Of a DNA stretch of 64,000 nt, positions 4,049 to 17,432 are shown piece by piece. The stretch lies in the NCBI GenBank assembly GCA_910585045.1, contig CAJUCD010000003.1:42779-106778 (forward strand). The letters run 5' to 3'. The notes under the pieces were generated by a model. The model ran no database searches and was not told the DNA's origin. It saw only the letters and a list, made by a program, of their open reading frames with translations. Numbering within the stretch: the first letter of the stretch is position 1; each line of letters begins with the position of its first letter. The translations under genes were made by a program, and so were the position numbers. Source of the stretch: an uncultured Bacilli bacterium (GTDB taxonomy: Bacteria; Bacillota_I; Bacilli_A; RF39; UBA660).

Positions 4049-4077
4049 TTGCATAAACCTTTTTTTTCTGATATGAT
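4049..4077 (+). promoter_or_regulatory. sigma-A-like promoter for the tasA-like operon: TTGCAT, 17-nt spacer, TATGAT
   Basis: -35 TTGCAT at 4049-4054, 17-nt spacer, -10 TATGAT at 4072-4077. It sits about 25 nt upstream of the RBS AAAGGAGG. Confidence 0.35.
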
Positions 4078-4101
4078 TTTTACAGTAAAGGAGGTCAAAC
4101 C

Positions 4102-4791
4102 ATGGAAAAGAAAAATACAGTTCTATTAACAGTTATTGCAGTAGCAACATTATTAGTTGCAGTAGTAGGAGCTACATTTGCGTACTTTACTGCTACAAAT
4201 GGTACAACAGGTGATGCAACTGGTACTACTGATGTAAAAACTGCTGAATCTGTTGCTGGTGTAACATTAAATTTTGGTAAAGTTAATCCTAGTTCTAATG
4301 TTGTTTATCCAGGTACTATGAATTATATTGGAGCTACAGTTGCTGCAGAATTAGAAGCTGGAAAAACAGGAACTTATAATTCAACTTATACTTTAAACGG
4401 AAGTGTAACTTTATCTGAAGCTTTTGTTTTTGAAGTTAATTATAGTTTATATGAAACTTCTACTCCATTAGCTGAAGGACAAACACCAGTTACTTGTGAT
4501 CCAGTTGCCAATAAAGGTACTGCTACAGAGATTAAATATTCTCAATCTTGTACAGTTAATGCTGGTTTAGGAACTAAGATTGATTCTGCTAGTGGTACAA
4601 TAGCTGCTGGTGATACTACTGCTACAATTGCTTTTAGTGGCAATGTAAATACTGGTTCGACTAAGTATTATTATTTAGTAGTAGAGTATCCAGAAAAAGA
4701 TGTAGATCAAAATGCTGATGCTGGTAATAAAACTATTACTCTAGCTATTGATTCTGTTGTTCCAGTTGGAAGTACTCCTGTTAATCAATAA
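4102..4791 (+). CDS. TasA/camelysin-like secreted fibre protein with SipW-cognate signal peptide
   Basis: N-terminus MEKKNTVLLTVIAVATLLVAVVGATFAYFTATNG matches the SipW-cognate signal class (hydrophobic stretch followed by AYF[ST]). Strong RBS AAAGGAGG. Thr/Gly-rich beta-type composition. Shares the motif TKYYYLVVEYPEKDVDQ with the protein at 14523. Confidence 0.7.
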   Translation: MEKKNTVLLTVIAVATLLVAVVGATFAYFTATNGTTGDATGTTDVKTAESVAGVTLNFGKVNPSSNVVYPGTMNYIGATVAAELEAGKTGTYNSTYTLNGSVTLSEAFVFEVNYSLYETSTPLAEGQTPVTCDPVANKGTATEIKYSQSCTVNAGLGTKIDSASGTIAAGDTTATIAFSGNVNTGSTKYYYLVVEYPEKDVDQNADAGNKTITLAIDSVVPVGSTPVNQ

Positions 4792-4812
4792 GATATTGAA
4801 TAGCAAAATTGA

Positions 4813-4839
4813 AAATCTATCAAATGATAGATTTTTTTT
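4813..4839 (+). terminator. rho-independent terminator (AAATCTATC-aaat-GATAGATTT + T-run)
   Basis: Perfect 9-bp stem followed by TTTTT, seen directly after the stop codon. Confidence 0.5.
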
Positions 4840-4926
4840 GTAGAACTAATACTAAATATCTTGAAATATGTCGAATTGTTTGGTAATATAAAAGTATAGT
4901 ATATATAATAGTTGTGGAGGCGTATT

Positions 4927-5526
4927 ATGAAGTTACATTCTAGTGAGAAGACAATTTTGTTAGCGATTGTTGTGTGTGTGTTGTTAATTTCTGGGGGATA
5001 TTCTTTTGCGTATTTTGTTAGTAATGGAGCTAATGTTACAGGTGAAGGAGGATCAACTAATATAAGTACTGCTAAGCTTATTAATGTTAAGTATGATGCT
5101 GGTTCTAGTAGTATTTCACTTGCAAATGCTTTACCAGGAGTAAAGTCAAGTAAGAATTTTAATATTACAGTAACTCCTATTGAGTCACAAAATACTGCTA
5201 ATTATACAATTAAATTGGTTATTAATTCTAATACTTTTGTTAAATGTACAGATGCTAATTATAATGCTAATAGTAATGCTTGTGTTAAAGATAGTGAAGA
5301 ACTTGTTTATACTTTGACTGATAGTGAAGGTGGAGTTTTTACAGGAGATATTACAGGAAAAACTGGTGAGATAGTATTGTTAAATGAAAGAAAAACAACT
5401 GCAGTAGAAGAAGTTTATAATTATACTTTAGAAGTAAGTTATAAGAATACAGGTGCGGATCAAAATCATAATTTTAATAAGACTTTAGAAGCTTTATTAA
5501 AAGTAGAACCTACAAAGGAAAATTAG
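4927..5526 (+). CDS. second SipW-cognate secreted protein (TasA-like paralog, about 200 aa)
   Basis: N-terminal TM segment followed by GGYSFAYFVSNGANVTGEGG, the same signal class. RBS GGAGG at 4916-4920. Start chosen at the ATG at 4927 (MKLHSSEK). Confidence 0.6.
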   Translation: MKLHSSEKTILLAIVVCVLLISGGYSFAYFVSNGANVTGEGGSTNISTAKLINVKYDAGSSSISLANALPGVKSSKNFNITVTPIESQNTANYTIKLVINSNTFVKCTDANYNANSNACVKDSEELVYTLTDSEGGVFTGDITGKTGEIVLLNERKTTAVEEVYNYTLEVSYKNTGADQNHNFNKTLEALLKVEPTKEN

Positions 5527-5634
5527 AAGCGATTATTTTCGCTTTTTTTATTTATTTGGAAGATATTTTACTATTTTATTATTGCGAATAAGAGCGCATT
5601 GTGTTATACTTTTTAATAGTAGGGAGTGTCAGTT

Positions 5635-8400
5635 ATGGATGATATGAATTTACAAGAACAGTATGCAATACTAGAAAAAGAAAGGGAAGAAGATAAAAGA
5701 AAAACTATTATAATTATAATTTTATGTATTTTAATTATATTAATTACCCTATTAGGATTGTATTTTGCTTATTCTAATGTTGGTAAAACTTGTACTTTGA
5801 ATTGTGATACCAATGGTGATGGAATTCCTGATACTAACTTAGATATTGATGGTGATGGAATTTGTGATATTAATTGCTTGGTTACTGGTAAAGATGGCAA
5901 GGAATATATGATAAATATTGATTACAATGGTGATAGAAAAGCACATTTTAATGTTGATACTGATGGTGATGGAATTCCTGATGTTAACTTAGTTAATAAA
6001 GATATTAATGGTGATGGAATTTGTGATTTTAACTGTGATATTGATGGTGATGGAAGGCCAGATATTAATATTGATTTAGATAACACTAATACATGTGATT
6101 TAAATTGCGATACCAATGGTGATGGCAAACCAGATATTAATATTGATACTAATGGAGATGGTAAATGCGATCTTAACTGTGATACTACGGGAGATGGAAG
6201 ACCAAATATAAACATTGATACCAATGGTGATGGAAAATGTGATCTTAACTGTGATACTAATGGAGATGGCAAACCAGATATTAATATTGATATTGATGGT
6301 GATAAAAAACCAGATATTAATATTGATATCAATGGAGATGGTAAACCAGACATAAATATTGATACTGATGGTGATGGCAAACCAGATATAAATATTGATT
6401 ATGATGGTGATGGAAAATGTGATTTCAACTGCGATACTAATGGTGATGGCAAACCAGATGATAATCTTATGAATCAAGATACCAATGGCGATGGTAAATG
6501 CGATCTTAACTGTGATACAAATGGCAATGGTAAACCAGATATTAATATTGATACTAATGGTGATGGCAAACCAGACATAAATGTTGATACTAATGGTGAT
6601 GGTAAACCAGATATAAATATTGATGTTGATAAAGATAAAAAACCAGATATAAATGTTGATACCAATGGCGATGGTAAACCAGATGATAATCTTATGAATC
6701 AAGACACAAACGGTGATGGAAAATGTGATTTCAACTGCGATACTAATGGAGATGGTTTCCCAGATATAAATATTGATATTGATGGTGATGGCAAATGCGA
6801 CCTTAACTGTGACACAGATGGTGATGGCAAATGTGATGTTAACTGCGATACTAATGGCGATGGTAAACCAGATATTAATATAGATGAAACTGGCGATGGC
6901 AAATGTGACATCAATTGTGATACTAATGGTGATGGCAAATGTGATGTTAACTGTGATACAGATAGTGATGGCAAATGTGATGTTAATTGTGACACCAATG
7001 GCGATGGTAAACCAGATATAAATATTGATACCAATGGTGATGGCAAATGTGATTTCAACTGCGACACAGATGGTGATGGTAAACCAGATGATAATCTTAT
7101 GAATCAAGATACAGATGGTGATGGTAAATGTGATCTTAACTGTGATACTAATGGAGATGGAAAGCCAGATATAAATATTGATAATAACGGTGACGGAAAG
7201 CCAGATACTAATATTGATACTAATGGTGATGGCAAACCAGATATTAATATTGATGTTGATAAAGATGGTAGACCAGATGTTAATATAGACACAGATGGTG
7301 ATAAAAAACCAGATGATAATCTTATGAATCAAGATACCAATGGCGATGGCAAATGTGATCTTAACTGTGACACAGATGGTGATGGGTTCCCAGATATAAA
7401 TATTGATATAGATGGCGATAAAGTTTGCGATTTAAATTGCGATAATGATGGCGATGGAAAATGTGATCTTAACTGTGATACAGATGGTGATGGCAAACCA
7501 GATACTAATATTGATACAGATGGCGATGGAAAGCCAGATAAAGATATAGATAAAGATGGTGACGGCAAACCAGATACTAATGTGGATAAAGATGGCGATG
7601 GTAATTGTGATTTAAATTGTGATGTTGATAAAGATGGTGTATGTGATTATAATTGTGACACCAATGGTGATGGAATTTGTGATTATAATTGTACAACTAC
7701 TTTTGAAAAGAATGCTAATTTAAAATCATTAACTATAAATAATTATGCTTTAAGTCCAGTATTTAATGAAAACATTACTAGCTATACAATAAGAGTTGGT
7801 TATAATACAAATAAAGTTAATATTAAAGCTGTTCCTGCTAATCCTAAAGCTACAGTGACTGGTGATGGAGAAGTAGTTCTTACAGGTAGTACAACATATA
7901 CTTCAGTAGTTGTAACTGCAGAGGATGGTACTAAGAAAACATATAATATAACAATTATTAAGAGTGATAAACCTGGTACTTCTGAGGGTGGAGACGATAA
8001 TGATAAAGTTGAAATTGAAAATGGTTCTTTAATTGTTAATTATACAAAAGATATTAATGTTAATAATATTTATCCAAAATGGAGAGGTTCTCAAACATTT
8101 ACAATAACTAATAAATCTAAGTCAACTGTAACTTATAATATTAATTTGAAAAATGTTATAAATACATTTAATAGTGATGACTTTAAATATACTTTATTTA
8201 AGGATAATGTGGTTTTAGTTAAACAAACTCCTGCTCCTAGAAAAGATGGCTCTATATATCAAAACTTAGTTCTTGCAGCTGGTGAATCTGCTACATTTGA
8301 ATTAAGATTTGAGTTTGTAGAAACTGGAAAGCCACAAGATGCTGATATAGGAGTACGTTATTCTTCTAAAGTAGAAATTAGTATTGTGTCTGTAAATTAA
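5635..8400 (+). CDS. large secreted repeat protein. It has a SipW-type signal anchor, about 45 tandem acidic Ca-binding-type repeats (DxNGDGKPDINID / CDLNCD, resembling thrombospondin type-3 repeats), and a C-terminal cadherin-like Ig/beta-sandwich region.
   Basis: Protein reads ...LLGLYFAYSNVGKTCTLNCDTNGDGIPD..., then dozens of DTNGDGKPDINID and CDLNCD units, ending in ...NANLKSLTINNYALSPVFNENITSYTIRVGYNT... (cadherin-like). RBS AGGGAG at 5621-5626. The ATG at 5635 is the likely start; the track used a GTG at 5626. Confidence 0.8.
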   Translation: MDDMNLQEQYAILEKEREEDKRKTIIIIILCILIILITLLGLYFAYSNVGKTCTLNCDTNGDGIPDTNLDIDGDGICDINCLVTGKDGKEYMINIDYNGDRKAHFNVDTDGDGIPDVNLVNKDINGDGICDFNCDIDGDGRPDINIDLDNTNTCDLNCDTNGDGKPDINIDTNGDGKCDLNCDTTGDGRPNINIDTNGDGKCDLNCDTNGDGKPDINIDIDGDKKPDINIDINGDGKPDINIDTDGDGKPDINIDYDGDGKCDFNCDTNGDGKPDDNLMNQDTNGDGKCDLNCDTNGNGKPDINIDTNGDGKPDINVDTNGDGKPDINIDVDKDKKPDINVDTNGDGKPDDNLMNQDTNGDGKCDFNCDTNGDGFPDINIDIDGDGKCDLNCDTDGDGKCDVNCDTNGDGKPDINIDETGDGKCDINCDTNGDGKCDVNCDTDSDGKCDVNCDTNGDGKPDINIDTNGDGKCDFNCDTDGDGKPDDNLMNQDTDGDGKCDLNCDTNGDGKPDINIDNNGDGKPDTNIDTNGDGKPDINIDVDKDGRPDVNIDTDGDKKPDDNLMNQDTNGDGKCDLNCDTDGDGFPDINIDIDGDKVCDLNCDNDGDGKCDLNCDTDGDGKPDTNIDTDGDGKPDKDIDKDGDGKPDTNVDKDGDGNCDLNCDVDKDGVCDYNCDTNGDGICDYNCTTTFEKNANLKSLTINNYALSPVFNENITSYTIRVGYNTNKVNIKAVPANPKATVTGDGEVVLTGSTTYTSVVVTAEDGTKKTYNITIIKSDKPGTSEGGDDNDKVEIENGSLIVNYTKDINVNNIYPKWRGSQTFTITNKSKSTVTYNINLKNVINTFNSDDFKYTLFKDNVVLVKQTPAPRKDGSIYQNLVLAAGESATFELRFEFVETGKPQDADIGVRYSSKVEISIVSVN
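5790..7700 (+). repeat. in-frame coding tandem repeats (39-54 nt units) encoding D-x-[ND]-G-D-G-K-[PC]-D loops
   Basis: Highly periodic ggtgatgg(c/t)aaaccagat / tgtgat(c/t)ttaactgtgat units are visible in the DNA. Confidence 0.8.
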
Positions 8401-8422
8401 GCTACTACAAGTAGCTTTTTTT
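8400..8422 (+). terminator. rho-independent terminator (AGCTACT-aca-AGTAGCT + T7)
   Basis: Perfect 7-bp stem immediately after the stop codon. Confidence 0.5.
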
Positions 8423-8499
8423 CATTTAGAAAATCACTAAATTTACTTGTAATTTGTCTAGTTATAAGCTATAATATTTGTAGAATAGGAGGGGCCTTT

Positions 8500-9255
8500 G
8501 TGAAAGCACAAAGTAGTTTGTCAGCTAATAAATTTTTGAAAGTGTTTGGAAAAATTGTTTCTTGGGCCCTTTTCATTGTACTTGTAGTAGCGGCTGTCTT
8601 TTTATTATATTATTATATTGCTACAAAAATATATACCGCTAAAGGTCCAGGTTATGAGCCTAAATTTTCTATTTATACAATAATAAGTGGATCTATGGAG
8701 CCTAATATAAAGGTTTATGATACTGTAATTAATGAACGTATTGACAATCCTAATGATATTGTTGTAGGTGATGTTATAACTTTTATATCTACAAGTTTAT
8801 TGTCGCCTGGGACGACTATAACGCACCGTGTTATTGCTCTTACAACAGATGAAAATGGTAATATTTGTTATCAAACTAAAGGAGATAATAATGCAGTGGC
8901 AGATCAAGCTTGCGCTAAATTTCATAACGTTTTAGGTAAGGTTATTCTTAAAATACCACAATTAGGTAGGGTTCAATTCTTTTTGGCCTCAAAAGCTGGA
9001 TGGTTATTATGTATTTTAATTCCTGCTTTAATTATTATTGGTAGAGATATTATGCGAATTACTAAATTGACTGCAATTAAGAAAACTACTCAAAAAATTA
9101 ATGATAAAGAGAAAAAAGATCCTAAAAAGATAGTTTTTGAACAGGGTAGAAAAGAAAATTTAAAAAGAAAATTGTTAAATGATGTTAATGAGTCTAAATA
9201 TTATTATGAAGATCCAAAAGTGATTGAAATTGATAGACAAAAGAAAAGGAAATAG
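8500..9255 (+). CDS. sipW: signal peptidase I, SipW/archaeal-eukaryal S26 type, with a Lys-rich C-terminal tail
   Basis: N-terminal TM segment, the catalytic box IISGSMEPNIKVYDTVI (SGSMEP), and a second conserved block GDNNAVADQ. GTG start after AGGAGG. Confidence 0.75.
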   Translation: MKAQSSLSANKFLKVFGKIVSWALFIVLVVAAVFLLYYYIATKIYTAKGPGYEPKFSIYTIISGSMEPNIKVYDTVINERIDNPNDIVVGDVITFISTSLLSPGTTITHRVIALTTDENGNICYQTKGDNNAVADQACAKFHNVLGKVILKIPQLGRVQFFLASKAGWLLCILIPALIIIGRDIMRITKLTAIKKTTQKINDKEKKDPKKIVFEQGRKENLKRKLLNDVNESKYYYEDPKVIEIDRQKKRK

Positions 9256-13830: not shown

Positions 13831-14283
13831 TTATTTGTAGTATTTGGGACTATCGGTTTTTCCTAATAAATAATCTGCTGAAATTAAATAAGTCTTACAA
13901 ATTTCATATAAAAAAGGAGTTGCTATTATATTTGTTCCACGTTCATATTCTGTTATTGTAGTTCTAGATATGTTTAGTTGTTTGGCAAGTTGTTCTTGCG
14001 TGATTTTGTTGTCTTTGCGTAATTCTTTAAGACGTTTTTTAGATATTTCTTTATTAATACTTTTGGCATTTTTATAATTTGGAATATCACTAAAACTGAA
14101 TATGTAGTCTATTGAAACATTAAAATAGTTACAAAGAGTACTTAAATGTTTAATTGGTATAATAATATATTCTCTTTCATATTCATTATATACGCCTTTA
14201 TAAATACCTATTACGTCGGCTATTTCATATTGTTTTTTATTTTTATTTTCTCTTAGCTCAGTTAGCCTTTCATTATATAGCAT
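13831..14283 (-). CDS. transcriptional regulator with two tandem XRE-type HTH domains
   Basis: Two HTH_3-like segments (QYEIADVIGIYKGVYNEYERE... and ITQEQLAKQLNISRTTITEYERG...). Paralog of 27725..28183, and divergent from the gene at 14523. Confidence 0.75.
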   Translation of the reverse strand: MLYNERLTELRENKNKKQYEIADVIGIYKGVYNEYEREYIIIPIKHLSTLCNYFNVSIDYIFSFSDIPNYKNAKSINKEISKKRLKELRKDNKITQEQLAKQLNISRTTITEYERGTNIIATPFLYEICKTYLISADYLLGKTDSPKYYK

Positions 14284-14522: not shown

Positions 14523-16328
14523 ATGAAACGAAAGAATAAAAAATTAATAGTAATAGTAAGCTGTCTACTATTAGTAATAAGTGTATCTTTAGCGTATTAT
14601 ATTGGCCAAATATTAATAAATGGCGAAGGAGCTAAAGGAAATGCAACAACAGCTAAAATAAAAGGAGCGACTCTAACAGTAGAAGGGAAGTTAGAGTTTA
14701 ATGATTCAGATATATTACCAGGTTATAAGACTATATCAAGTATAAAGGTAACAGCAACAGGAAATAATGAGTTAATACCATATAATTTAATCTGGAAGGG
14801 AACAAATGGCATAAGTAAAATAAATTATACAGTATATAAAACAAGTAGTGAGATAAATGTAAGTGCTAGTTGTGAGAAGAAGGCAACAGTCCAAAATGGA
14901 GTGCAAATATTGAATGAGGAATGCTCAATAACTAACTTAGATAATTTAGGTTCCTTTATAGCAAGTGGCTCAATAATTAAGAATAGCACTAAAGAAATAC
15001 TAACAAGTGATGAATTTATAACTGCAACTAATGATGGAGATACAAAGTATTATTATGTGATATTAGAGTATCCAAATTTAGATGAAGATCAGAGTAGTGA
15101 TATGGATGCAACATTTGAAGGCATTGTCACCGTAGAAGAGAGCAATGCCACATCTGATATTAATATCATGGCTGTATATCTAGGTGATGAAGTAGGAAAC
15201 TATACCGAAACAACTGATATACCAGGGAGTGGTTATATACTCAGTGAGAAGAGTACATGTAGTAATAATGCGGTTCCTGTATGGGATTATAATAATAGTG
15301 GGTTACTAACTAAAAATCTTACTAAAAGTGGAACCAGTTGTTATTTATATTTTAATAAATTAAAAACAGTAAATACAATACTAGGAAATATTGAGGTTAA
15401 TCCTGAGGTTAAAACAATATTTGATAAAGCAGCTATAGCTGATGAAGGTGTACAATCTGGAATTGATGAAGATGGAACTACTTATTATTGGCGAGGAGCA
15501 GCGACCACCAACTATTTAAAGTTTGCAGGCTATTGTTGGCGAATAGTTAGAATAAATGGTAGCGGAACGATAAGATTGATTTATAGTGGAAATACTTGTC
15601 AACCTAATACGGCTATACTGAAAGATGCTGTTATTTCTGTTAGCGCCTTTAATAGCATAAGCCTAGATAATGCTTATGTAGGATATATGTATGGAACTAC
15701 TGATAGTAATACATATGAAGAGACGCATGCAAATATAAATAATAGTACAATAAAAGAAGTTCTAGATGAGTGGTATAAGACTAATATTTTAGAAAAGGGT
15801 TATGATGGTTATGTTGCTAAAGAAGATGGTTTTTGTAATGATAGAACTATAATTAAGACTGCTGAAACTGGTTATGTGGGTGATGGGTATAATAAATTGC
15901 CAACTAGCTATGGTCCATTTGGAAGATTTGTTTTAGATAATGATTTTATTAAAAAAAATATGAATCCTACTTTTTTGTGTAGTCAAGTAAATGATTTGTT
16001 TACATATAACTTAGCAACAAAAGGAAATAAAATGTTAAGTTATCCTGTAGGGCTTATAACAGTTGATGAAGTTATTTTTGCTGGGGGTTATTCTCAGGTG
16101 GCTAATGCTAATTATTATCTTAATATTGGAGTGCCATTTTGGACTATGTCTCCTTATCATTATCATGTAGAATATTATGCAGTACAATTTGGTGTATATG
16201 CTGATGGGCGATTACAATGGCTCTTAGGTAATGAAATAGAACATGGAGTAAGGCCTGTCATAAATCTTCGCTCTGATATTCAAATTTTAGATGGTGATGG
16301 TACTATTGATAATCCATATGTAGTTTAG
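14523..16328 (+). CDS. secreted protein: SipW-type signal, then a TasA/camelysin-like domain of about 200 aa, then a conserved C-terminal module of about 400 aa with unknown function
   Basis: N-terminus KKLIVIVSCLLLVISVSLAYYIGQ. Motif TKYYYVILEYPNLDEDQ shared with the TasA-like 4102 protein. C-terminal module (NTILGNIEVN...YYWRGAATTNYLKFAGYCWRIVRINGSGTIRLIYSG...RPVINLRSDIQILDGDGTIDNPYVV) nearly identical in blocks to the 28456 protein. Confidence 0.7.
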   Translation: MKRKNKKLIVIVSCLLLVISVSLAYYIGQILINGEGAKGNATTAKIKGATLTVEGKLEFNDSDILPGYKTISSIKVTATGNNELIPYNLIWKGTNGISKINYTVYKTSSEINVSASCEKKATVQNGVQILNEECSITNLDNLGSFIASGSIIKNSTKEILTSDEFITATNDGDTKYYYVILEYPNLDEDQSSDMDATFEGIVTVEESNATSDINIMAVYLGDEVGNYTETTDIPGSGYILSEKSTCSNNAVPVWDYNNSGLLTKNLTKSGTSCYLYFNKLKTVNTILGNIEVNPEVKTIFDKAAIADEGVQSGIDEDGTTYYWRGAATTNYLKFAGYCWRIVRINGSGTIRLIYSGNTCQPNTAILKDAVISVSAFNSISLDNAYVGYMYGTTDSNTYEETHANINNSTIKEVLDEWYKTNILEKGYDGYVAKEDGFCNDRTIIKTAETGYVGDGYNKLPTSYGPFGRFVLDNDFIKKNMNPTFLCSQVNDLFTYNLATKGNKMLSYPVGLITVDEVIFAGGYSQVANANYYLNIGVPFWTMSPYHYHVEYYAVQFGVYADGRLQWLLGNEIEHGVRPVINLRSDIQILDGDGTIDNPYVV

Positions 16329-16458: not shown

Positions 16459-16791
16459 ATGTTAAAAGTTGATATGGAATATGAGAAAGGTATTTTATAT
16501 GTTAGATTGAAAGGAATATTAGATAGAAAGAATTGTTATAAGATTAATAATTATATTGTGCCCGTTGTTTTAAAGCATAAAATAAGATATTTAGTTTTTA
16601 ATTTATTTGAATTAAGAGATATTGATGAATCTGGTTTAGATTCGCTTCTTAATACAAAATGTGCAATTAGAACTAATAAGGGTAAAATTTGCTTGTGTGA
16701 AGTAAGTGATGATTTAAGATTAAAAATAAAGAGATTGAGAATGAAAGTAGCTTCTAATGAACTTGCTGCTAATAGGTTAATAAATATATAA
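16459..16791 (+). CDS. STAS-domain anti-sigma-factor antagonist (SpoIIAA/RsbV-like)
   Basis: 110 aa; DIDESGLDSLLN aligns with the DSSGLG phospho-serine loop of SpoIIAA. Stop overlaps the start of the sigma gene. Confidence 0.55.
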   Translation: MLKVDMEYEKGILYVRLKGILDRKNCYKINNYIVPVVLKHKIRYLVFNLFELRDIDESGLDSLLNTKCAIRTNKGKICLCEVSDDLRLKIKRLRMKVASNELAANRLINI

Positions 16792-17432
16792 TGACAACTA
16801 ATGAACTTATAGCGGCCCATATGGGTTTGATTAAAAATATTGCAGGCAAATTTTATAATTGTGAAAAAGAAGATTTAATTCAGGTGGGAGTTATTGGTTT
16901 ATTAAAAGCTTATCAAAATTTTAATGATACAGGAGAAACACAATTTAGTACATATGCATATACATATATATTTGGTGAAATGTATGCTTTAGCAAATCAA
17001 GCAAGAAATATTAAAATTAGTAAAGATTTGTTAAGACTTTATCGAGAAGTAGAAAAAGTTAGATATGATTTAGCTCAAAAATATAATAGATTAGTTTCTT
17101 ATGAAGAAGTGGCTTTATTTTTAGAGCAAGATGTCAATAAAGTGTATGATGCTGTAAATAGTGCGCAAGCTATGATTTCTCTTGATGATGAAGCTAATGC
17201 ACTTAATTTGCATGAAGTTATTCCTGATAGAAATAGAGATAATCCAGATTTAAAAATAGATTTGGATAATAGTTTTAGTGTTCTTAATAGTGAAGAACAA
17301 GAAATTATTAAATCGCGTTATTTTGAGGATTTGACACAATCTGAAGTAGCACATAAACTTAATATGACTCAAGTAATGGTATCAAGATATGAAAAGAAAA
17401 GCTTAGAGAAGATGCGAGCGGTTATGATGTAG
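16791..17432 (+). CDS. RNA polymerase sigma factor, SigF/SigG/SigB subfamily
   Basis: Region 2 (DLIQVGVIGLLKAYQNFN...FSTYAYTYIFGEM) and region 4 (LTQSEVAHKLNMTQVMVSRYEKKSLEKMR). Confidence 0.8.
   Translation: MTTNELIAAHMGLIKNIAGKFYNCEKEDLIQVGVIGLLKAYQNFNDTGETQFSTYAYTYIFGEMYALANQARNIKISKDLLRLYREVEKVRYDLAQKYNRLVSYEEVALFLEQDVNKVYDAVNSAQAMISLDDEANALNLHEVIPDRNRDNPDLKIDLDNSFSVLNSEEQEIIKSRYFEDLTQSEVAHKLNMTQVMVSRYEKKSLEKMRAVMM

Follow-up and report, generated by a model that had tools for sequence, protein, structure and literature searches.

Gene content and export signals

We analysed a 64,000-nucleotide stretch of contig CAJUCD010000003.1 (the window) from an uncultured Bacilli bacterium, in which a block of four genes encodes three predicted exported proteins, here termed P1, P2 and P3, and a SipW-type signal peptidase. 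TasA-superfamily fibres provide the protein scaffold for biofilms in Bacillus and Clostridium and for several archaeal pili that bundle cells together, and the locus probably encodes a diverged fibre of this kind. The window is 99% identical to the metagenome-assembled genome (MAG) contig CAXHRJ010000001.1, and its relatives carry the labels uncultured Bacilli, Tenericutes, Mycoplasma sp. CAG:776 or Candidatus Caccenecus. By these record labels the source is an uncultured gut bacterium that belongs to class Bacilli, and not the clostridial organism suggested by an earlier, sequence-only reading of the same DNA.

The four genes (4102-9255) are co-directional, have good ribosome-binding sites, and are flanked by Tex upstream and by FemAB (minus strand) and an HdeD-like protein downstream. 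Genes and protein regions are as follows; in the program-made list of open reading frames (ORFs), that of P3 begins earlier, at GTG 5626, giving a 924-aa ORF.

4102-4791, plus strand: P1, presumed major subunit (229 aa, AGGAGG ribosome-binding site)
4102-4182, plus strand: signal peptide of P1 (aa 1-27, predicted cleavage ...GATFA-YFTA)
4927-5526, plus strand: P2, presumed minor subunit (199 aa, GGAGG ribosome-binding site)
5635-8400, plus strand: P3, presumed membrane anchor and stalk (921 aa counted from ATG)
5635-5772, plus strand: N-terminus of P3, a charged, predicted cytoplasmic segment and a transmembrane (TM) helix ending GLYFAYS (from orthologue comparison)
5806-7692, plus strand: predicted stalk of P3, 45 tandem 12-residue DxNGDGK[P/C]DxN[I/C] units
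7720-7959, plus strand: cadherin-like beta-sandwich of P3, PF12733 (aa 699-778 of the 924-aa ORF; 36.1 bits against a cutoff of 24.2, E 8.9e-9)
7996-8397, plus strand: predicted C-terminal TasA-superfamily jelly roll of P3 (motifs PxW..Q.F.I.N.S, N.F and Y..F.ETg.PQD.D.G..Y..K.EI)
8500-9255, plus strand: SipW-type (archaeal/ER-type) signal peptidase I (251 aa, GTG start, AGGAGGGG)

The last gene had been read as an S26 peptidase of the SGSMEP type rather than an ordinary LepB-type signal peptidase, and profile searches confirm this: the protein scores 93.3 bits against TIGR02228, the model for archaeal-type signal peptidase I (cutoff 51.85), and only 23.8 bits against the LepB-type bacterial model TIGR02227 (cutoff 47). 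Its motifs are SGSMEP (aa 63-68), H109 and GDNN (aa 128-131), and two TM helices lie at aa 22-40 and aa 167-181. Against the Bacillus SipW equivalog NF046067 it reaches 92.1 bits, below the cutoff of 190; on these scores the peptidase belongs to the same family as Bacillus SipW and is not its orthologue by the NCBI criterion. The second TM helix is followed by a Lys-rich C-terminal tail of 61 aa (aa 191-251, nt 9070-9255) with 16 lysines. Because tblastn matches to distant homologues end near aa 200, this tail is apparently restricted to close relatives. The C-terminus of B. subtilis SipW reportedly has a second, non-proteolytic role in biofilm formation.

P1, P2 and P3 share a common signal class, a hydrophobic helix closing in G-x-[TSY]-F-A-Y-[FS], with the respective ends VVGATFA-YF, GGYSFA-YF and LGLYFA-YS (the hyphen before the tyrosine marks the expected cleavage site). 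Encoded beside a SipW-type peptidase, GATFA-YF, GYSFA-YF and LYFA-YS also agree with the description of a SipW substrate as a G-x-T-[FW]-A helix followed by an aromatic residue. The hidden Markov model (HMM) for the SipW-cognate signal, TIGR04088 (cutoff 19 bits), gave 14.2 bits for P1 and no match for P2 or P3, while 11 of 37 P2 orthologues matched it weakly (best E 5.6e-4). The earlier claim of a SipW-cognate signal on all three substrates therefore stands for the motif, F-A-Y-F/S being present in each, and fails for the HMM. A type IV pilin reading was rejected, as no G-FTLIE-type prepilin motif is present (cleavage at the hyphen) and the adjoining peptidase is an S26 signal peptidase and not a prepilin peptidase.

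Superfamily membership and the architecture of P3

Behind its signal, P1 consists of a low-confidence, Thr/Gly-rich N-terminal extension (aa 28 to ~50) and a beta-sandwich (aa ~50-229), modelled by AlphaFold2 with a predicted local distance difference test (pLDDT) value of 84.6 overall and above 90 across aa 50-229. P2 combines its SipW-type signal, ...GGYSFA-YFVS, with a beta-sandwich (pLDDT 82). In both models the sandwich is confident and the N-terminal extension of about 20 residues is disordered, as expected of an unpaired donor strand, although such monomer models are compatible with this role and not diagnostic of it. P1 and P2 each hold one conserved cysteine pair (aa 132 and 150 in P1, aa 107 and 119 in P2).

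Direct comparison with the known families was negative. At E<=0.1, P1, P2, whole P3 and the isolated C-terminal domain of P3 (C-domain) had no match to Pfam PF12389 (Peptidase_M73), nor did the isolated C-domain at E<=10. The NCBIfam models TasA (NF046066) and BsaA (TIGR04090) found nothing in P1, P2 or whole P3 at E<=0.1, and the TapA/YqxM model TIGR04087 had no match in any of the three in the NCBIfam scan. The P1 family, with 1917 homologues, includes none that has a Pfam domain or a name.

Intermediate profiles link the proteins to the superfamily. Among the 37 members of the P2 family, six match Peptidase_M73 weakly and one of these, P0143, lies above the cutoff (26.5 bits against 22.5, aligned over its full length). 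An exhaustive search with the P2 family profile found 2441 representative proteins, from which a distant set of 57 single-domain, full-length matches (E 1e-13 to 1e-22) was taken; 33 of these match Peptidase_M73 (best E 1.4e-10), seven match the BsaA model and six the TasA model, and some match cognate_SipW. In profile-profile comparison with hhalign, the P1 and P2 families align with 98.6% probability, and P1 aligns to the M73-positive distant set with 99.6% (E 7e-25). Because of this profile chain through distant M73-positive relatives, P1 and P2 are placed in the TasA superfamily as diverged members, on evidence that is transitive. The same holds for the C-domain of P3: an alignment of 38 orthologous C-termini from related loci (A5), which has no signal peptide to inflate the score, matched the M73-positive set with 99.7% probability (E 1.8e-26, 135 columns), which identifies the ~135 residues that follow the cadherin-like domain at the end of P3 as a TasA-superfamily beta-sandwich by profile homology. 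A word-indexed homologue search with this C-domain gave no match.

The TasA-like nature ascribed to P1 and P2 is thus upheld by transitive homology and not by a direct Peptidase_M73 match, and of the HMM searches proposed for the locus TIGR02228 and Cadherin-like were positive, while Peptidase_M73/TasA, TIGR04088 and TSP_3 were not. Of the two outcomes that the earlier reading had named as refuting it, the lack of TasA/camelysin and SipW-signal matches occurred and an ordinary LepB-type score for the peptidase did not. Structure prediction, proposed as a check for a TasA/camelysin fold, did not supply it: searches with the good P1 and P2 models returned only generic beta-sandwiches and did not single out TasA.

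P3 runs from a charged cytoplasmic segment through a TM helix with the FAY motif, a calcium-loop stalk and an optional cadherin-like domain to the TasA-like domain, and the mature protein has a net charge of about -122. Since positive charges precede the helix, an N-in topology is predicted. The pattern D-x-[DN]-G-D-G-x-[PC]-D-x-N-x occurs 45 times, and Tandem Repeats Finder reported a 36-nt period in 40 copies; the units are putative calcium-binding loops of the EF-hand/DxDxDG type, about half of them with a CxxxC pair. P3 contains 45 cysteines, mostly as CxxxC pairs in alternate repeats, and the extracellular parts of P1, P2 and P3 taken together are unusually Cys-rich for a likely anaerobe. 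The TSP_3 family, to which the repeats had been tentatively linked, had no match even on repeat fragments at E<=10, and FG-GAP calcium-loop matches were sub-threshold only. Matches of P3 to the MSCRAMM proteins ClfA/Sdr were far under their cutoffs and were set aside as a product of the Asp-rich repeats. Long antisense ORFs (62-410 aa) at 5922-7568 on the minus strand, inside the repeat array, are taken to be by-products of the array and not genes.

The description of P3 as a giant repeat protein with a C-terminal cadherin-like domain therefore holds for its 45 repeats and for the domain itself, which is not the last one, as the ~135-aa beta-sandwich comes after it.

Conservation of the module and its variable parts

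Scanning for the N-terminal peptide of P1 gathered 78 related loci with the gene order Tex, P1 (one to six copies), [P2], P3, SipW, FemAB, HdeD, the brackets marking a gene that is not always present. The complete core of P1, P3 and SipW was found in 43 of the 78, all from MAGs of uncultured gut Bacilli, and most of the others are contigs that end inside the locus; only 18 of the 43 complete modules include P2. Recurrence of the same gene order in dozens of other genomes shows that the arrangement is not due to chance, and the co-directional block of SipW substrates recognised from the window alone, with its four genes in place, is confirmed. A further 80 loci were gathered through the peptidase alone and are free of P1-sequence bias; most of those with enough room have TasA-superfamily genes directly upstream of the peptidase, whose signals grade continuously from LLTVIAVATLLVAVVGATFAYF into the classical GGGTFAYFSD of TasA/CalY-type proteins. 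From these comparisons of sequence, the system is real and conserved.

P3 orthologues, with lengths between 387 and 1283 aa, lie between P1/P2 and SipW in the 43 loci. An N-segment of the LLEEEKKE..KKT type is common to all of them, as is a TM helix ending G-[AL]-[TY]-[FY]-[AS]-Y, in which the -1 residue is A, S or T, or L in one clade. Many of the shorter orthologues are without the cadherin-like domain and retain TM helix, repeats and C-domain. The cytoplasmic N-segment (5635-5703; …LEKEREEDKRKT; consensus LLEEEKKE..KKT) is kept in the orthologues of L003-L078, even where they are ~30% identical elsewhere. Its conservation at such divergence suggests that it interacts with something on the cytoplasmic side.

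In more distant SipW loci, the protein encoded beside the peptidase is 209-257 aa long. Its charged N-segment is followed by a single TM helix that has no cleavage motif and by a low-complexity spacer, and the P3 C-domain profile is the only one to match its C-terminal domain. In one metagenome locus of the peptidase-gathered set (L079:6663-7913), a 396-aa P3-like protein with the same N-segment, TM helix (GTTFSYF) and C-domain carries apparently ordinary beta-rich domains where the calcium-binding repeats would stand. The spacer module of P3 therefore appears to be interchangeable.

The major subunit shows a different pattern. Residues 1-31 of P1 (4102-4194), MEKKNTiLLTVIAVATLLVAVVGATFAYFTA, are essentially invariant in the family alignments (A1, A2), while beyond the signal and the first four mature residues identity falls to ~40% and synonymous sites are near-saturated between genomes. 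The 22-residue signal core LLTVIA[VI]ATLLVAVVGATFAYF occurs in 105 gene copies at 64 loci; its pairwise amino-acid identity of 98% largely follows from selecting copies by that pattern. Third codon positions of the core are 41% identical between loci and 97.5% identical within loci. Between genomes, the former value led us to reject conservation at the nucleotide level, as by a recombination site or an RNA element, as the source of the invariant N-terminus; within a genome, the latter points to gene conversion among P1 paralogues. Signals were more variable in the peptidase-gathered loci than in the set gathered by the P1 peptide, and part of the invariance may be ascertainment bias. The pattern suggests that the P1 signal is more constrained than expected of a discarded signal peptide, with sampling by that peptide as a possible contributor.

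At 25 of the 78 related loci P1 is amplified to two to six divergent copies, and at 11 of the 25 the copies differ in orientation. Three to six paralogues in alternating orientation occur in L018:1-11445 and also in L009, L010, L022 and L045. There, the copies share 92-100% identity over the promoter-proximal ~95 nt and the first ~95 coding nt, and these segments make up inverted repeats at distances of 1.2-5.8 kb; the P1 copies of L018 have an AbiEi/AbiEii toxin-antitoxin pair and an AAA_14/DUF4143 ATPase between them. These near-identical inverted 5' ends point to concerted evolution and possibly to inversion-prone antigenic variation of the major subunit.

Besides the four genes, the following sites and one further gene belong to the picture in the window.

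4815-4839, plus strand: terminator-like hairpin 3' of P1 (8-bp AT-rich stem 4815-4822/4825-4832, then a T8 run)
5525-5546, plus strand: terminator-like hairpin 3' of P2 (terminator scan)
8399-8417, plus strand: terminator-like hairpin 3' of P3 (terminator scan)
8447-8475, plus strand: promoter-like site 5' of the peptidase gene (TTGTAA, 17 nt, TATAAT; consensus match only)
14523-16328, plus strand: probable fourth substrate (601 aa; signal ...SVSLAYYIG, N-terminal P1/P2-like domain, C-terminal domain of ~390 aa)

The hairpin behind P1 was read directly from the sequence, as the scanner missed it because its stem has fewer than three G-C pairs. P1, P2 and P3 are each followed by a 3' hairpin and a T-run, and promoter-like hexamers precede the downstream genes. 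With a hairpin and a promoter-like site for each gene, the block looks like four separate transcription units rather than one operon, as far as consensus matches indicate. Rfam found only three tRNAs across the window, none of them within the locus.

The 601-aa protein was found by tblastn with P1 (E 1.6e-10). Its C-terminal domain has no family match in Pfam, and many P2-profile relatives from the exhaustive search have the same architecture of N-terminal domain and long extension; the protein may be a tip or adhesin subunit served by the same peptidase. Adjoining its gene are a double-HTH XRE-type regulator on the opposite strand (13831-14283, minus strand) and, on the other side (16459-17432, plus strand), what look by eye like genes for a STAS-like anti-sigma antagonist and a sigma factor.

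A predicted surface fibre and its proposed anchor

Peptidase identity, the common signal class, the remote domain homology of P1, P2 and P3 and the conservation of the module are directly supported. What they jointly build is an interpretation to which we give a probability of roughly 60%: a cell-surface fibre of the TasA superfamily, processed by SipW, with P1 as the major subunit, P2 as a minor subunit and P3 as a membrane-anchored stalk or base. By analogy with the filaments of TasA and BsaA and, in archaea, with AbpA, Tafi and cannulae filaments, P1, P2 and P3 would be Sec substrates that SipW cleaves behind ...F-A. The N-terminal extension of P1, once freed, would complete the sandwich of the following P1 as an inserted donor strand and so build a filament. 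On the same analogy, P2 could serve as a low-copy initiator, terminator or tip adaptor, and P3 as the base. The N-terminal helix of P3 would then sit in the membrane, its 45 putative calcium-binding loops and cadherin-like domain would make up a rigid, acidic stalk whose length could presumably span the wall, and its C-terminal TasA-like domain would dock the first P1 by strand complementation.

The system resembles tapA-sipW-tasA of B. subtilis in having an archaeal-type signal peptidase dedicated to, and encoded beside, its substrates, signals that end in ...[TS]-[FW]-A with an aromatic P2' residue, a beta-sandwich major subunit with an N-terminal extension and a second, low-abundance accessory protein with the same kind of signal. 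It differs in several respects: similarity to TasA is found through intermediate profiles only, there is no TapA (TIGR04087) homologue, the gene order is another one and each gene apparently has its own promoter and terminator. The accessory protein P3, moreover, is a 921-aa protein with TM helix, calcium-binding-type repeats, cadherin-like domain and TasA-like domain, and the peptidase, with its long Lys-rich tail, remains under the SipW equivalog cutoff (92 against 190 bits). B. subtilis TapA primes TasA by donating a strand (PMC10151520). The proposal that the giant protein replaces TapA as an accessory protein or adhesin did not hold up, as P3 has a TasA-superfamily C-domain of its own and belongs to a conserved class beside SipW made of TM helix, spacer and jelly roll.

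Closer in gene content is sipW-bsaA-bsaB-bsaC of C. perfringens, which encodes two TasA-like proteins, a 70-kDa von Willebrand factor A (vWA) protein and SipW, and whose BsaA polymers are membrane-anchored (PMC11580942). In both loci the genes for two TasA-like proteins stand in a co-directional block with those for SipW and for a large protein with adhesion domains, and some intermediate relatives of P2 match the BsaA model TIGR04090. In contrast to P3, with its calcium-binding-type repeats, cadherin-like domain and TasA-like C-domain, BsaC has a vWA domain and no TasA-like domain, and its secretion needs type IV pilus proteins, none of which were seen beside the locus studied here.

In archaea, Tafi loci encode TafA/TafE pilins, major and minor, a TafC tip, a TafF anchor and a TafD peptidase (PMC12337348, PMC11821415), and TafF, a TM helix joined to a jelly roll, is the proposed anchor of haloarchaeal Tafi pili (PMC12337348). 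P3 and its short relatives share a TafF-like anchor architecture and context, by analogy and not as members of one family; Tafi differs in being archaeal, in many cases Tat-dependent, and in needing an extra peptidase helper, TafG, and TafF is without a long repeat stalk. The AbpX clade, which likewise pairs a TasA-superfamily subunit with an adjacent TIGR02228-type peptidase, assembles in a calcium-dependent manner, and its loci also hold minor and tip components (bioRxiv 10.64898/2026.01.04.697558). There, calcium is bound on the subunit itself, whereas the putative calcium sites here lie in the separate P3 stalk, and the peptidases are described with ten TM helices as against two here. To call the arrangement undescribed, as had been done, was thus to overstate it, with C. 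perfringens sipW-bsaABC, archaeal Tafi with TafF, and TapA as precedents. The parts list is not new, and the locus is a diverged relative of a known system rather than a new kind of machine.

Several results weigh against the fibre interpretation. No protein of the window passes the Pfam or NCBIfam threshold for Peptidase_M73, TasA, BsaA or TIGR04088, and the P1 and P2 family profiles retrieved nothing relevant from the sequences in the PDB. Gathering related loci by the P1 N-terminal peptide biases statements on the invariance of that peptide. Furthermore, the genes appear to be separate transcription units, and P3 keeps a cleavable-looking FA-YS motif (cleavage at the hyphen), which makes its release instead of anchoring conceivable.

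The last point leads to the reading that P3 is no anchor at all. SipW would cleave and release it as a calcium-dependent tip adhesin or cross-linker that attaches to the fibre by its C-domain, or by offering its new N-terminus as a donor strand, and binds ligands of the host or of neighbouring cells through the cadherin-like domain. The retained F-A-Y-S motif, the small -1 residue in most orthologues and the presence of a cadherin-like domain together with a strongly acidic repeat region speak for it, as does the secretion of BsaC, the large vWA partner in the C. perfringens operon (PMC11580942). We nevertheless consider release rather unlikely: a conserved cytoplasmic N-segment would be unexpected in a discarded signal peptide, Leu at -1 in one clade is unsuited to signal peptidase I, no cleavage motif at all is present in the TM helix of the distant equivalents, and many orthologues have TM helix, repeats and C-domain yet no cadherin-like domain. 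A long-stalk membrane anchor, with the repeat array as an expanded spacer, is the most likely role of P3 by sequence comparison. P3-type proteins are read as anchors above all because the distant peptidase-adjacent proteins combine a P3-type domain with a TM helix lacking a cleavage motif; the conserved position beside SipW, the conserved cytoplasmic N-segment and a total length that varies between 387 and 1283 aa also support the anchor.

A second rival concerns P1, which might instead be a non-filamentous coat protein or variable surface antigen, monomeric or lattice-forming, from which SipW just removes the signal; its paralogues would provide antigenic or phage-receptor diversity and P3 would be a separate surface protein. 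The amplification of P1 in mixed orientation and the homogenisation of its 5' ends within genomes are patterns typical of variable surface-protein families, and in fold searches with the P1 and P2 models fibre subunits do not stand out. This seems unlikely to us all the same, as every characterised member of the TasA superfamily polymerises (PMC9245690; PMC12337348; PMC9674648) and the disordered extension of P1, together with a conserved partner, P3, that has a matching domain, fits strand complementation. Variability is also compatible with filament formation, since pilins vary too. That P1 and P2 are secreted metalloproteases of the camelysin type, as the name 'Camelysin metallo-endopeptidase' of the Pfam family reached through intermediates (Peptidase_M73) would have it, is highly improbable and was rejected: P1 has no histidine and hence is no zinc protease, of the two histidines in P2 one belongs to the signal region, neither protein has HExxH, and the structurally studied family members are fibre subunits (PMC10151520; PMC9674648).

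Beyond the fibre interpretation itself, we tentatively put forward a broader and doubtful proposal, whose parts are meant jointly. Bacterial TasA fibres might generally have a third, hitherto undescribed component, a membrane-anchored, SipW-adjacent base protein composed of a cytoplasmic tail, a TM helix, a species-specific spacer and a specialised TasA-like domain. Here the spacer would be a calcium-binding ruler of 45 units, its length setting the distance from the membrane at which the fibre starts, and the near-invariant P1 signal peptide would have a function after or beyond its cleavage.

In the literature collection searched, no paper tying SipW to these lineages was found. New are the architecture of P3, comparative evidence for a bacterial class of anchors, and the family itself, which is unannotated and restricted to a little-known gut lineage. 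A large family of ~1,900 P1-type proteins, with neither Pfam domain nor name, joins the TasA superfamily; its genomic position is conserved in this uncultured and poorly known group of gut bacteria. P3-type proteins, which connect a TM helix to a dedicated TasA-like domain through a very variable spacer, are concrete anchor candidates and make the question of anchoring testable, and the locus offers a likely dominant surface structure and antigen of these gut bacteria.

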